Shown in pieces: positions 31,803 through 38,837 of a stretch of 64,000 nt of DNA (position 1 is the first letter of the stretch; each line of letters starts with the position of its first letter). Both the position numbers and the translations under genes were made by a program. Source of the stretch: a virus; the IMG/VR virus record IMGVR_UViG_3300032296_002019, positions 1 through 64,000 of that record; one strand, given 5' to 3'. The notes beneath the pieces are model-generated. The model worked only from the letters and a program-made list of their open reading frames with translations. It was not told where the DNA came from and did not search any database.

Positions 31803-32933
31803 TTAATGAGATTCTCCTACGTTATTTGTTTCTGAGTATATTAAATAGTCTGGATTAATAACTTTGGCTACTTTGTGTCTATCTCCGGACTGATCTTTTA
31901 CAACCACACCTTCTTCCGGTATTTTTGTCTTAGGTATGAAGTTATTGAAAACATACTTATCTTGGACAGCTTTACTCCACGGACCATAATAAAGTATTTT
32001 TACGTACTCCAATCCTAGAGAGTGCGTTATCACACTGAAAGAATTGAACACTTCCAGATATTCCCCATTTACATTAACATCGAATCCACAAAAGCTAATC
32101 TCTGGGATACCGTAATCATAGTTTTTTTGGATACCCGGCCCATATATCTCTCCATATAAAATAACACCCGTTCCTATTACATCTTCTGGTTTTCTTTCTT
32201 CTACTATGTTTTTTACGTATGCCCATAGATGATACTTTATATTGTACTTCCTCTCTATGTTATACCATACATTAGAATCGTAATATCCTTGTGAGTCAGA
32301 TCCTTTCTCAACATTATGAGATCCAACTACAAACTCATAGTATGCAAACTTGTTGCCAAACAATTTTTTTATCTTATCTAAGATAGATGGCTTCTCTTTT
32401 CTTACTATTCCGTATCTAGCATTAGTACCATGAATTTTTCTAGTAATCTCTACTATTTGCCCTTCAGTAAAAATATCTGGGACATTCTTTATATTAGGGA
32501 ACTTATAGTACTTATGGAAGTTAGAGTTTTCTTTGTATTTTATTTGCTTACCTGATGATAGAGAAATAGTTTTTATGGGAGGTTCGTACTTATATATTTT
32601 AAGTTTATCCATGAAATCATCTCCATCTTTACCTATCTTTCCTGCATATATCATAGGTATGATAAGACATTCAGAATAAACTCCTCTTAGTTTAATAGTC
32701 CTTACTCTATTACCTTTTCTTAGATAATCTTTTACTTTTAAAGACACTGCCATCTCTTCTGGTATGATGGCATCTGTAGTGGCTACTACAATTAGATTTC
32801 CTTTAGAGTGCATTCCTTTCTTCACTATACAATTCCAACCCTTTACCACAGCAAGTTCTATATGGTCGGAACCAGGAATAGGATTTATTTCATCTATTTT
32901 TGAGACGAAACATACTGAATTAGGATTTTCCAT
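31803..32933 (-). CDS. RNA ligase (DRB0094/Rnl2-like family)
   Basis: N-terminal OB-like module (PIPGSDHIELA, RTIKLRGVYS), motif I KIHGTN, YGEIYG, FDV, EGVVVK; start ATG 32933. Confidence 0.88.
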   Translation of the reverse strand: MENPNSVCFVSKIDEINPIPGSDHIELAVVKGWNCIVKKGMHSKGNLIVVATTDAIIPEEMAVSLKVKDYLRKGNRVRTIKLRGVYSECLIIPMIYAGKIGKDGDDFMDKLKIYKYEPPIKTISLSSGKQIKYKENSNFHKYYKFPNIKNVPDIFTEGQIVEITRKIHGTNARYGIVRKEKPSILDKIKKLFGNKFAYYEFVVGSHNVEKGSDSQGYYDSNVWYNIERKYNIKYHLWAYVKNIVEERKPEDVIGTGVILYGEIYGPGIQKNYDYGIPEISFCGFDVNVNGEYLEVFNSFSVITHSLGLEYVKILYYGPWSKAVQDKYVFNNFIPKTKIPEEGVVVKDQSGDRHKVAKVINPDYLIYSETNNVGESH

Positions 32934-32960
32934 ATCTGGTATAAATGTTGTTTTAAGAGT

Positions 32961-33037
32961 TGGTGGACTCACCTGGGCTTGAACCAGGGACCCTCTGATT
33001 ATGAGTCAGATGCTCTAACCAACTGAGCTATGAGTCC
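32961..33037 (-). tRNA. tRNA with CAU anticodon (Ile2 or elongator Met)
   Basis: GGACTCA..TCTGA-CTCATAA-TCAGA..CCTGG-TTCAAGC-CCAGG-TGAGTCC-ACCA; full cloverleaf, CCA encoded. Confidence 0.93.
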
Positions 33038-33070
33038 GGTGCTGTTGTTCTATTGACTAATTTTTATTTT

Positions 33071-33313
33071 TTATTTTTTAGTAATTAATTTATTTTCTAA
33101 TTTATCACAACGTGAGTCTAACGATCGAATAATTTCATCATCACGATGATTAGTGTGTCTATACACTTCTTCTATGTTTTGACACATATCTCTTCGTGTT
33201 TCATCTAACTCTTTTCCAATTTGTTTTACCTTAACAAAAGCATAAACAGAAACCATTGCTACAGCAATGACCACCACAAATGCAATTCCTAAACTAAATG
33301 ATAATAGTTCCAT
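33071..33313 (-). CDS. membrane-anchored coiled-coil protein
   Basis: N-terminal TM; LDSRCDKLE. Confidence 0.65.
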   Translation of the reverse strand: MELLSFSLGIAFVVVIAVAMVSVYAFVKVKQIGKELDETRRDMCQNIEEVYRHTNHRDDEIIRSLDSRCDKLENKLITKK

Positions 33314-33350
33314 AATTTGTTTCTCCTTATATGTCAAAGAACAACAGCAG

Positions 33351-33437
33351 TGCCCCCAGCGGGAATCGAACCCGCACTCGCTTTTTCGGCGAACAGGATT
33401 TTAAGTCCTGCGTGTCTACCTATTCCACCACAAGGGC
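33351..33437 (-). tRNA. tRNA-Leu(UAA)
   Basis: GCCCTTG..CAGGA-CTTAAAA-TCCTG, long variable arm, GCGGG-TTCGATT-CCCGC. Confidence 0.93.
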
Positions 33438-33558
33438 TGGTCGGGACTCTCCCCGTCTGTCACTTGCTGAGATCGTTACCGGCGGTCGCACTCGTTATAA
33501 CTAAGAATAGTTTACGAGATTCTCCATTTAGGGCTCTCTTTAAGTTACTCTCCCCACG
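33438..33558 (-). ncRNA. unidentified structured spacer RNA A
   Basis: GC-rich; hairpin CTCGT..AACTA-TTCT-TAGTT..ACGAG; 3' TGACAGACGGG-GAGAGT-CCCGAC abutting tRNA-Leu. Confidence 0.5.
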
Positions 33559-33635
33559 CAGTCAGGGCCGGACTCGAACCGGATAAGCAACCATTTCTGG
33601 ATTCGGCAACCATGCCTCATTACGCCCACCTGACT
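33559..33635 (-). ncRNA. tRNA-like RNA (acceptor and T arm intact, non-canonical D/anticodon region)
   Basis: AGTCAGG/CCTGACT 7-bp acceptor, CCGG-TTCGAGT-CCGG T arm; no 5-bp stem/7-nt anticodon loop. Confidence 0.7.
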
Positions 33636-33639
33636 ATAG

Positions 33640-33763
33640 AGCCGACCTTTCCCGGCAGTCAACAGAGCTTATAGCGTACCTACGCACTGTGAGGTACTCT
33701 GTGTGATAGTCTCGCATTGCCTAAGCAGTGACATGTATGCCTTCGGTTGCCGTGCGTGTCATG
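33640..33763 (-). ncRNA. unidentified structured leader RNA B
   Basis: TGACA/TGTCA, ACAGAG/CTCTGT and GTACCT/AGGTAC helices; 3' TGACTGCCGG-GAAAGG-TCGGC. Confidence 0.5.
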
Positions 33764-33765
33764 AG

Positions 33766-33773
33766 CAAATATA
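33766..33773 (-). promoter_or_regulatory. Bacteroidota-type -7 promoter for the RNA cluster
   Basis: TATATTTG immediately upstream of RNA B. Confidence 0.65.
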
Positions 33774-33801
33774 CTATTAAAAATTTTTTTTAAAGGATTA
33801 T

Positions 33802-34539
33802 TTAACTGAAATCTATACACATTTTATCCCTATTCACTTTAAACACCATAGGATCTCCTTGTGGTTCATAGGAATTATCTAATACGGAAGCATTGACATA
33901 TAAAGTTTTTTCTGTTAGATATACCCCTCTTCCTGAGTGTATGTGTCCGGAAATAAACATCATTGGGTTTATTTGTTCTATTTTATGTTTAAGATCCACA
34001 CATCCTACATATTCAGAACTCTCAGGAACATAGTCAAGCTTTCCTCTTACAGGCCCATGAGTAACTACTATGTTTGTATCAGATGGTATATTATCCCAAT
34101 ATGATTTGATCTCATCATTCCTGTCAGCATTAAAAGCCCAGTACTGCTTATAGAAACTTGGGGTTATAGGACTTCCCCATATCTTAATACCTTCTAGTAT
34201 CACACTACTGTTCTCTAAATAATGTATACCATGCGCTACTTTATGCATCTCTAGCATATCTAATAGCCACCCTGGCTTACCCTTAGAGAAGTTATCCTTA
34301 AATAGATCTTGATCTTCGTAGTTGTAGAAGAACTTAGAGTCAAAGGATTTGTCATGATTACCTGCTATGAATACCTTATGCTTACACTGAGTTTGTTTAG
34401 CATACCATCTAAGGAAAGAATCTACCTCATGTTTATAACCTAATGAAGATAAATCTCCTGCAAATATGGATATATCACATTCGGGAAGTTCTATTTTTTT
34501 ATGTTTGTTGTGAGTATCACTGAAAGCTGCTATTTTCAT
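33802..34539 (-). CDS. metallophosphoesterase
   Basis: SDTH, AGD, AGNHD, THGP, GHIH. Confidence 0.9.
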   Translation of the reverse strand: MKIAAFSDTHNKHKKIELPECDISIFAGDLSSLGYKHEVDSFLRWYAKQTQCKHKVFIAGNHDKSFDSKFFYNYEDQDLFKDNFSKGKPGWLLDMLEMHKVAHGIHYLENSSVILEGIKIWGSPITPSFYKQYWAFNADRNDEIKSYWDNIPSDTNIVVTHGPVRGKLDYVPESSEYVGCVDLKHKIEQINPMMFISGHIHSGRGVYLTEKTLYVNASVLDNSYEPQGDPMVFKVNRDKMCIDFS

Positions 34540-38296: not shown

Positions 38297-38327
38297 CGTT
38301 TTTCCTAACCTTAACCTACCTTTTGAG

Positions 38328-38837
38328 TGGAGATGGTGGGATTCGAACCCACGTCTCCGAAAGAGACAATAATACTAACGTCTCACATGCTTAGTACTAA
38401 TTAGTGTTCGTCTTACGTTAGCTCAACGAGTCATTTCGTAAGCTGGTACGATACTAATCTGCACCGTAAGAGGCCAACCGTATAGATCGGGGTCCACCAC
38501 CTTGTTTTATGACTACAAGGAAAACTTTTGTTAGTGTTTCGCCCCCTATATCACTAACTAAGACGCTCAAAGTCGGCTTTGACCATTAAGGGAGCCCTCA
38601 ATCCACAGTCCTTATTTAACGAGTCGATCGTGAATACTCAGAGTAGTTCTGTTCCTAGGTTACTCACCCGACGCGGACTAGGCTGCTACAGCGTAGTCGG
38701 CACCAACGAAGTCCATAAGATCTTCGAAGGTCATTGTTGACATTTCGTCATTTACTGTTTGGTATCTTCTAAGGCAGTATACCCAAATGCCTGCATGTAG
38801 TATTACCTCTGCATCCGGATCGATACCGGTCATCCCC
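38328..38837 (-). ncRNA. ssrA: tmRNA
   Basis: 5' GGGGATGACCGGTATCGA; 3' GACGTGGGTTCGAATCCCACCATCTCCA (G3-U acceptor pair); tag ORF 38749-38678 DEMSTMTFEDLMDFVGADYAVAA*. Confidence 0.92.

Follow-up and report, generated by a model that had tools for sequence, protein, structure and literature searches.

A TGAC-flanked 3' hairpin shared by two conserved RNA families of uncultured phages and found in many bacteria

The window, which means here the whole stretch of 64,000 nucleotides that was analysed, is the first 64 kb of a 99.5-kb phage record in IMG/VR, and the record is estimated to be 57% complete. The genes of interest lie on the minus strand in the order phosphoesterase, 38-nt spacer, RNA B, tRNA look-alike T, RNA A, tRNA-Leu(UAA), an ORF for an 88-aa membrane protein, tRNA-Met and RNA ligase. 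The gene upstream of the RNA block (33802..34539) encodes a calcineurin-like metallophosphoesterase (Pfam PF00149, E 2e-9). Its stop codon is followed by the spacer (33764..33801), in which a TAnnTTTG-type box read off the sequence at 33773-33766 is a candidate promoter for RNA B. We take TAnnTTTG to be a promoter motif of Bacteroidota, and the box ahead of RNA B may be such a promoter. Homologs of RNA B elsewhere begin directly after a tRNA look-alike, not after a promoter-type spacer. RNA B with its 5-nt tail occupies 33636..33763 (17 aligned homologs), T occupies 33559..33635 and RNA A occupies 33438..33558 (24 aligned homologs). The tRNA-Leu(UAA) gene (33350..33437) was found with ARAGORN and the Rfam tRNA model (56.5 bits), and its 5' end sets the 3' end of RNA A. 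The RNA ligase gene, located downstream on the same strand (31803..32972), encodes an N-terminal OB domain (Pfam PF21189) followed by an RNA_ligase (nucleotidyltransferase) domain (PF09414). A true tmRNA, matched by Rfam in the window, is 5 kb from the RNA block.

T is a 77-nt element composed of a 7-bp acceptor stem, a T arm and a discriminator G, and it has no anticodon loop. Neither ARAGORN nor the Rfam tRNA model called T a tRNA. T is a conserved family, of which about 10 homologs with 77-91% identity were aligned, and the 7-bp acceptor stem is perfect.

Relatives of the block were collected in two ways. Through the adjacent phosphoesterase, two phage contigs were reached in which this protein is 74-76% identical, and one of them carries B, T, A and tRNA-Leu in identical order. 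Exact-word scans with conserved stretches of RNA A led to further viral and metagenome contigs. BLAST against all the fetched loci gave about 30 loci with A, about 20 with B and about 12 with T. Between phages in which the adjacent protein has just 74-76% identity, the identity of RNA A is about 94%, and the detected relatives of the A and B families are about 73-94% identical to the window copies. RNA A is framed by tRNA-shaped genes at each of the 24 distinct loci: its 5' end is a few bases at most from the 3' end of one such gene, and its 3' end abuts the 5' end of another. The gene on the 3' side of A is tRNA-Leu(UAA), tRNA-Leu(UAG), a Trp or Met tRNA, T, or a look-alike on a tRNA-Leu frame. 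A tRNA look-alike is located 4-6 nt 3' of RNA B in 14 of 17 loci. The alternating layout of leaders and tRNAs noticed in the first-pass annotation thus recurs in every relative as alternation with tRNA-shaped genes.

Long RNA arrays are present in the relatives as well, with as many as nine units in 5 kb. The units have one tRNA-Leu-like frame in common, in which the acceptor stem, the class-II D arm and the T arm are constant and unrelated inserts replace the anticodon arm. Phosphoesterase homologs adjoin such arrays in 8 further fetched loci, and a ligase with the same OB and RNA_ligase architecture adjoins them in 8 other fetched loci, two of which are from one contig. The RNA ligase and the phosphoesterase thus recur beside the arrays, yet not in all of them.

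RNA A begins with a helix P1 (33555-33552 with 33533-33530) of 4 bp, which closes a conserved 18-nt loop. P2 (33518-33514 with 33495-33491) and P3 (33511-33508 with 33503-33500) form a stem-loop inside the junction. They are followed by an unpaired 16-mer (33491-33476) that is invariant in the alignment of the 24 homologs. RNAalifold on the 24 distinct homologs gave 19 pairs, 11 of them compensatory. When the closing helix is included, the 24 homologs have 22 pairs with 98.5% of cells paired, and 12 of the pairs are compensatory. Slid partners pair in 25-50% of cells, and no shuffle attains the observed covariation score. One loop of RNA A contains a triplet, UUA, CUC or CUA, each of which is a Leu codon and is followed by A. 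A T-box-like reading in which this triplet is a specifier was rejected, as the triplet is independent of the anticodon of the neighbouring tRNA: the UUA loop adjoins tRNA-Leu(UAG) in locus L129, and no Leu tRNA is near the CUC and CUA variants. A small ORF was rejected as well. Although an ATG frame in A is open in some homologs, the window copy meets a stop after 8 codons, and the substitutions compensate one another in RNA pairing.

RNA B has a conserved 5' segment that opens with TGAC (33761-33758) and is followed by a 5' helix. A long helix (33701-33697 with 33667-33663) encloses a hairpin at 33695-33678, and the shared 3' hairpin described below comes after it. RNAalifold on 17 homologs gave 22 pairs, 14 of them compensatory, and 96.5% of cells are paired compared with 17-39% for slid partners. 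The 5' end and the hairpin loop of RNA B are both invariant and may form a candidate pseudoknot; neither site varies in the alignment.

The single-sequence folding energies of A and B were no better than those of shuffled sequences (z +0.49 and +0.55), and the same was true of T and of the isolated hairpins. Thermodynamic stability was therefore dropped as evidence of structure, and the description of A and B as structured rests on covariation, not on energy. Covariation bore out the first-pass claim that each body has its own helices, and it indicates that A and B are two distinct conserved multi-helix RNA families, not junk spacers, which on the evidence of the alignments occur in many uncultured phages. 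No conserved ORF is present in RNA A or in RNA B. No family in Rfam 15 matches A, B or the hairpin, and the only matches in the window are to tRNA and tmRNA. With E values up to 10 on 32800-34000, nothing was found on A, B or T, and the A and B homologs in four loci (L002, L003, L006 and L007) gave no Rfam match. A suspected likeness of A or B to RNase P RNA or to the 530 loop of 16S rRNA was discarded, as no RNase P or rRNA model matched.

What A and B share is a short hairpin at the 3' end, hereafter called the handle. It had been noticed from the sequence alone as a TGAC followed by a hairpin with a GARAG loop, placed before a tRNA or tRNA-like gene in both cases, and the sequence is as described. 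In its general form the handle consists of TGAC, a spacer of 1-3 nt, a 5-bp hairpin with a GARAG-type loop and a tail of 4-5 nt. The handle of RNA B (33641..33661) has TGAC at 33661-33658, a spacer T at 33657, a stem formed by 33656-33652 and 33645-33641, and a GAAAGG loop at 33651-33646. The 5-nt tail of RNA B (33636..33640) follows, and T starts at 33635. The handle of RNA A (33438..33462, tail included) has TGAC at 33462-33459, a 3-nt spacer, a stem formed by 33455-33451 and 33446-33442 with an innermost G-U pair, and an AGAG loop. Its tail is ACCA (33441-33438), and tRNA-Leu(UAA) starts at 33437. The stem of A had been read as 6 bp ending 2 nt before the tRNA. However, the 5' base of the outer G-C pair is variable in the 24 homologs whereas its 3' C is invariant, so this pair is unsupported; the stem of A is 4-5 bp and its tail is 4 nt, like those of the rest of the family.

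A covariance model of the common form of the handle (R1) found the B copy at 36.8 bits (E 1e-7) as the sole match in the window. It missed the A copy, a variant in which the spacer is longer and the loop is GAGAGA or AGAG. The A handle is nearly invariant in the 17 closer homologs, and a C-G pair is replaced by U-A in two homologs. Distant A homologs have the canonical GAAAGA or GAAAGT loop and a spacer of 1-2 nt, which indicates that the hairpins of A and B are the same kind of element. Among B homologs the handle stem varies on both sides. In general the stems vary freely, TGAC and the loop are constant, and the flanks upstream of TGAC are not conserved. For a CRISPR repeat or a solitary-repeat RNA anti-CRISPR, near-identical copies within a genome that match a CRISPR repeat of the host would be expected; the handle stems vary freely within and between genomes, unlike CRISPR repeats. 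A sigma-70 promoter over the B handle (a -35-like box, an 18-nt spacer and a -10-like box) was considered and rejected, as this spacer is the covarying hairpin and the base before TGAC is unconserved. The promoter reading also fails since the A copy has no -10 box and transcription would begin inside the look-alike.

A hairpin of the same kind closes A, B and many other spacer RNAs with unrelated bodies. This agrees with the part of the earlier proposal of a modular small-RNA family that concerned a common handle; the other part, a variable guide body, does not hold, as A and B are conserved families and A contains an invariant 16-mer. A strict motif pattern had 89 matches in the 2.3 Mb of fetched loci and 16-27 matches in shuffled sequences. 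The match is located at most 10 nt upstream of the 5' end of a tRNA or look-alike in 44 of the 89 cases, and all 44 are at 4-6 nt (42 at 4-5 nt). This places the end of the hairpin 4-5 nt upstream of the predicted RNase P cut, in line with the release by RNase P cleavage proposed in the first-pass annotation. Since the seed alignment for handle covariation had been pre-selected for pairing, the evidence for the stem rests on a pairing-blind test, in which sites were chosen by TGAC, spacing and loop letters only. All five pairs were formed at 22 of 45 such sites compared with 1 of 223 in shuffles. Literature searches found no description of the hairpin or of tRNA-framed arrays of phage RNAs.

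The wider search found the motif in many other phages and in bacteria. The commonest 21-nt form is present in at least 120 contigs of species-representative bacterial genomes, where about 17 chance matches are expected in the whole collection. Among the matches listed, the handle is located just before tRNAs in Bacteroidota, Clostridia and others, and in Riemerella, Kordia and other Bacteroidota it precedes U-runs that stand in front of genes. The matches listed also include tandem sets of two to four units and a multi-copy element at contig ends of a Methylococcaceae MAG. Several Acidimicrobiia tmRNAs among them carry three tandem handle units downstream of the tag reading frame. In a Bacteroidales contig (L353), the only such case, a hammerhead-like match stands beside the handle with 38.2 bits, compared with the gathering score of 56.3. 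No Rfam family covers the handle at the bacterial loci, and the ORFs that neighbour the motif in Riemerella have no Pfam match. The hairpin is therefore private neither to phages nor to the leaders of tRNAs.

Does the handle belong to the RNA in front of it or to the gene behind it? The A handle tracks the upstream body, being nearly invariant in the 17 closer homologs before tRNA-Leu, Trp, Met, T or a tRNA-Leu-framed look-alike. Homologs of B that have a common handle stem precede differing genes. Where B is the last RNA in the array (L176, L230 and L268), an intrinsic terminator takes the place of the handle. In other phage and bacterial loci a U-run follows directly 3' of the handle, and the handle would thus end the transcript there too. 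From the constancy of the A handle, the sharing of B stems, the terminator swap and the U-runs, the handle appears to belong to the 3' end of the upstream RNA, not to the front of the downstream gene.

These observations bear on the idea that the handle acts in cis as a leader for the tRNA-shaped gene behind it. Such a leader would establish RNase P cleavage, its timing or its order, or keep the 5' acceptor strand from mispairing. The fixed spacing of 4-5 nt to the tRNA 5' end would fit this role, and TGAC matches part of the 3' acceptor strand of the look-alikes and could pair with their 5' strand. However, the A handle persists where the next tRNA has a 5' strand unable to pair with TGAC. 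Copies of the handle are also found in front of U-runs, in front of RNA B itself (L145) and in tandem. The handle is missing from about 90% of the tRNA and look-alike genes of the fetched loci, which indicates that their processing does not require it. We therefore regard a leader function as unlikely.

The handle might also be a nut-like site, at which a phage or host factor loads on RNA polymerase so that the hairpin-rich array escapes Rho-dependent or intrinsic termination. The boxB element of phage lambda has a short 5-bp stem and a purine-rich GNRA-like pentaloop, is repeated in phage transcripts, and both its sequence and its shape matter. The handle resembles boxB in its 5-bp stem and its purine-rich, GNRA-like loop, the arrays are long and untranslated, and some bacteria carry the motif in 5' leaders before genes. 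The handle differs from boxB, however, in having a loop of 6 nt instead of 5 (GAAAGA, GAAAGG, GAGAGA), or of 4 nt when G-U closes it, and no conserved boxA-like element is located upstream. Whereas a nut site would be expected once near the start of an operon, the handle recurs where units end, either at a constant 4-5 nt from the cut site at a tRNA 5' end or before U-runs, where the hairpin itself looks like a terminator. It occurs in many phyla, and its position inside tmRNA does not fit. An antitermination role thus seems improbable.

The reading that we favour, and hold to be reasonably probable from the arrangement of the sequence elements, is that the block forms a non-coding operon punctuated by tRNA-shaped genes. 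RNase P and a tRNA 3' enzyme would cut it and so release stable small RNAs with a common 3' module. B, T, A and tRNA-Leu would be one transcript, which either starts at a promoter immediately before B or extends from the phosphoesterase gene by read-through. Host RNase P would generate the 5' ends of T and tRNA-Leu, and RNase Z, the most probable tRNA 3' enzyme here, would cut after the discriminator base of T. The products would include two separate RNAs, B of about 128 nt and A of about 121 nt, each with the handle at its extreme 3' end and a tail of 4-5 nt. A tail of this length is too short for RNase R, RNase II and PNPase to engage. We infer that the handle caps the 3' end and stabilises it against 3'-to-5' exonucleases, and that it may also fold compactly or serve as a docking site for some widely shared factor, as the TGAC flank and the loop are conserved across phyla and protection alone is not sufficient to account for this. 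Our best guess is that the RNA bodies are protein-binding RNAs tied to tRNA processing or repair.

Three observations run counter to a simple cap. Any hairpin could protect a 3' end, and protection by itself does not explain the conserved TGAC and loop. In L353, the predicted cleavage site of the hammerhead-like match, parsed by hand, would leave the handle on a tiny 3' fragment. The handle units of the Acidimicrobiia tmRNAs are internal, not 3'-terminal.

It is also conceivable that A and/or B are self-cleaving ribozymes of an undescribed class that trim the ends of the adjacent tRNA-shaped RNAs, and that the phosphoesterase and the ligase handle the resulting ends. At every locus RNA A directly follows a tRNA look-alike, and both RNAs contain long invariant unpaired stretches. 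The window ligase has an OB domain followed by the RNA_ligase domain, an order which we take to be that of the DRB0094 family, so it is a candidate member only. Theta ribozymes, which are minimal HDV-like ribozymes, abut phage tRNA ends, and in the phages that carry them, which mostly infect Bacteroidota, the DRB0094-family RNA ligase is 140-fold enriched (Kienbeck et al., PMC10879173). RNA A is like theta ribozymes in being a non-tRNA RNA element that abuts the end of a phage tRNA-shaped RNA, and by analogy a link between odd tRNA-end processing and this type of ligase is plausible. RNA A differs in that it has no nested double-pseudoknot features and no HDV-type Rfam match. An HDV-like fold for A was tried and rejected: the 5' part has a P1 of 4 bp that starts 2-3 nt past the end of the look-alike and an 18-nt loop without P3, whereas in an HDV-like fold the cleavage-site G1 would open a P1 of 6-7 bp, P3 and L3 would lie between the P1 strands, and J4/2 would contain the catalytic C. 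No ribozyme family matches the block with E values up to 10, and this includes the hammerhead, twister, pistol and hatchet models on 32800-34000. As the observed boundaries can be explained by RNase P and RNase Z, self-cleavage is quite unlikely.

Conserved single-stranded stretches in each RNA could also serve in antisense or guide RNAs that pair with phage or host transcripts. A guide or antisense role of the bodies had been put forward from the sequence. However, the longest complementary matches to the 99-kb phage record were 11-12 nt, compared with 11-14 nt for shuffled queries, so targets in the phage's own genome were not above the level of shuffles. The bodies are conserved families, not variable guides, and an antisense role is highly improbable.

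The layout itself, a stable RNA between tRNA-shaped genes, has precedents, and the production of additional stable RNAs by phage tRNA clusters was recognised about 50 years ago. In phage T4, tRNA-Arg is followed by rnaD (species 2), which is 119 nt long and ends in CACCA, and by the tRNA-like rnaC (species 1). RNA A is 121 nt long, ends in ACCA and is likewise located directly before a tRNA-shaped gene. Phage T5 has the same layout with the tRNA-like RNA1, RNAI, RNAIII and tRNA-His, and has RNAIV and RNA2 as well. The RNAs of both phages are annotated as stable RNAs. A and B, like them, are about 100-140 nt long and lie directly between tRNA or tRNA-like genes in a tRNA cluster. Homology was not detected between A and T4 rnaD or the T5 RNAs: the handle and RNA A models (R1 and R2) gave only chance-level scores on the T4 and T5 regions, and T4 and T5 lack the TGAC hairpin that A and B have. 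In the tRNA-miRNA encoding RNAs of Murid herpesvirus 68 and in engineered tRNA-guide RNA arrays, tRNA units serve as punctuation and host tRNA enzymes release the small RNAs. Those systems are eukaryotic or synthetic and release miRNA hairpins or guides, whereas here the products would be 120-nt multi-helix RNAs.

The stem-loop at the 3' end of eukaryotic histone mRNA is bound by SLBP. Its 5' flank and small loop are conserved, its stem is short, and endonucleolytic cleavage leaves a tail of 4-5 nt; in combination these features define and protect the 3' end. The resemblance of the handle is one of design only, as the sequence is unrelated and the stem-loop belongs to another domain of life. 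A bolder proposal, which is tentative and has only a minor chance of being right, is that the TGAC hairpin is a cross-phylum 3'-end module read by a conserved factor and a counterpart in design of the histone stem-loop. Phages would mass-produce A- and B-like RNAs with tRNA-shaped punctuation, and these RNAs would act with the adjacent RNA-repair enzymes in a conflict over tRNA integrity. A conserved neighbour protein was considered as the partner of the handle and rejected: when 1,242 ORFs from 112 array loci were clustered, no family was present in more than 10 loci and no candidate partner emerged. The most frequent annotated neighbour families in the 112 loci were terminase, RNA ligase, phosphoesterase, DUF932 and thymidylate synthase.

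The locus shows that such stable RNAs are not oddities of T4 and T5. A subset of their families is unified by one short 3' hairpin that is also present in many bacterial phyla and in some tmRNAs. The 21-nt motif may be used as bait for a binding factor, and the compact size of A and B makes them suitable for structure determination, knock-outs and end mapping. Confirmation of the tRNA-punctuated design would also supply a natural precedent for engineered tRNA-spaced RNA arrays. The window holds two such RNAs beside T; in relatives a further conserved RNA of about 260 nt, absent from the window, is located upstream of B.

The P1 loop of RNA A (window 33555-33530; conserved 18-nt loop) contains a single variable triplet. 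RNA A is one of the two minus-strand small RNAs of the window that end in the TGAC-hairpin, which consists of TGAC, a short spacer, a 5-bp stem and a GARAG-type loop. Depending on the homolog, the triplet is UUA, CUC or CUA, each of which is a leucine codon, and it is followed by A. Since the triplet does not track the neighbouring tRNA across homologs, a specifier role for it is unsupported. The TGAC-hairpin of RNA B, the second of the small RNAs, and the first bases of the adjacent tRNA look-alike are covered by a sequence (window 33633-33662) that agrees with a sigma-70 promoter at 10 of 12 positions; this match was judged coincidental.

In related loci, a conserved non-coding RNA of ~260 nt directly adjoins RNA B or a tRNA look-alike, either of which is its 3' neighbour. 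It is located at L003:5050-5312, L002:5042-5287 and, on the minus strand, L007:6285-6508, and further copies are present in L053, L115, L138, L145 and L148. The window's phage record lacks this RNA, and no Rfam family matches it. Dense RNA arrays, with up to nine tRNA-Leu-framed RNAs per 5 kb, were found at L017:285-4673, L025:2223-5802 and L084:12357-13880. Their members are built on the same acceptor stem, with a D arm of the tRNA-Leu type and a T arm, but the anticodon arm is replaced by unrelated inserts of 40-150 nt, some of which are conserved from phage to phage.

The longest ORF of the RNA ligase gene that flanks the window's RNA block (31803-32972, minus strand; GTG start at 32972) overlaps tRNA-Met (32961-33037) by 12 nt, and the true start is probably further downstream. 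In the related phage contig L002, an Rfam match of 96 bits places a group I intron at L002:1920-2143, ~2 kb upstream of the phosphoesterase homolog. The window also encodes a phage tmRNA of ~513 nt (38325-38837), which has the G3-U70 pair and a long, acidic tag that, read by eye from the sequence, ends in ...YAVAA. A homologous tmRNA in L003 has an acidic tag of 23 residues (ARAGORN call).

The TGAC-hairpin was also found in bacterial loci. In the Bacteroidales contig L353 (1516-1643, minus strand), weak matches to two hammerhead models lie immediately 5' of the TGAC-hairpin and a U-run. RAGATH-1-hammerhead scores 38.2 bits (E 0.008), which falls short of its gathering score, and the type II hammerhead also matches weakly. 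Cellular tmRNAs of Acidimicrobiia, with tags such as ANGDFAPAA, contain three TGAC-hairpin units in tandem 3' of the tag reading frame (L281:2000-2075, minus strand; likewise L302, L327 and L348). In a Methylococcaceae MAG, a multi-copy, hairpin-rich leader of ~400 nt bears the TGAC-hairpin followed by a U-run. The copy at L331:450-890 is located 5' of a 1067-aa ORF. The leader lies at dozens of contig ends of this one MAG (e.g. L283, L295 and L314), many of which reflect an assembly broken by the multi-copy leader.
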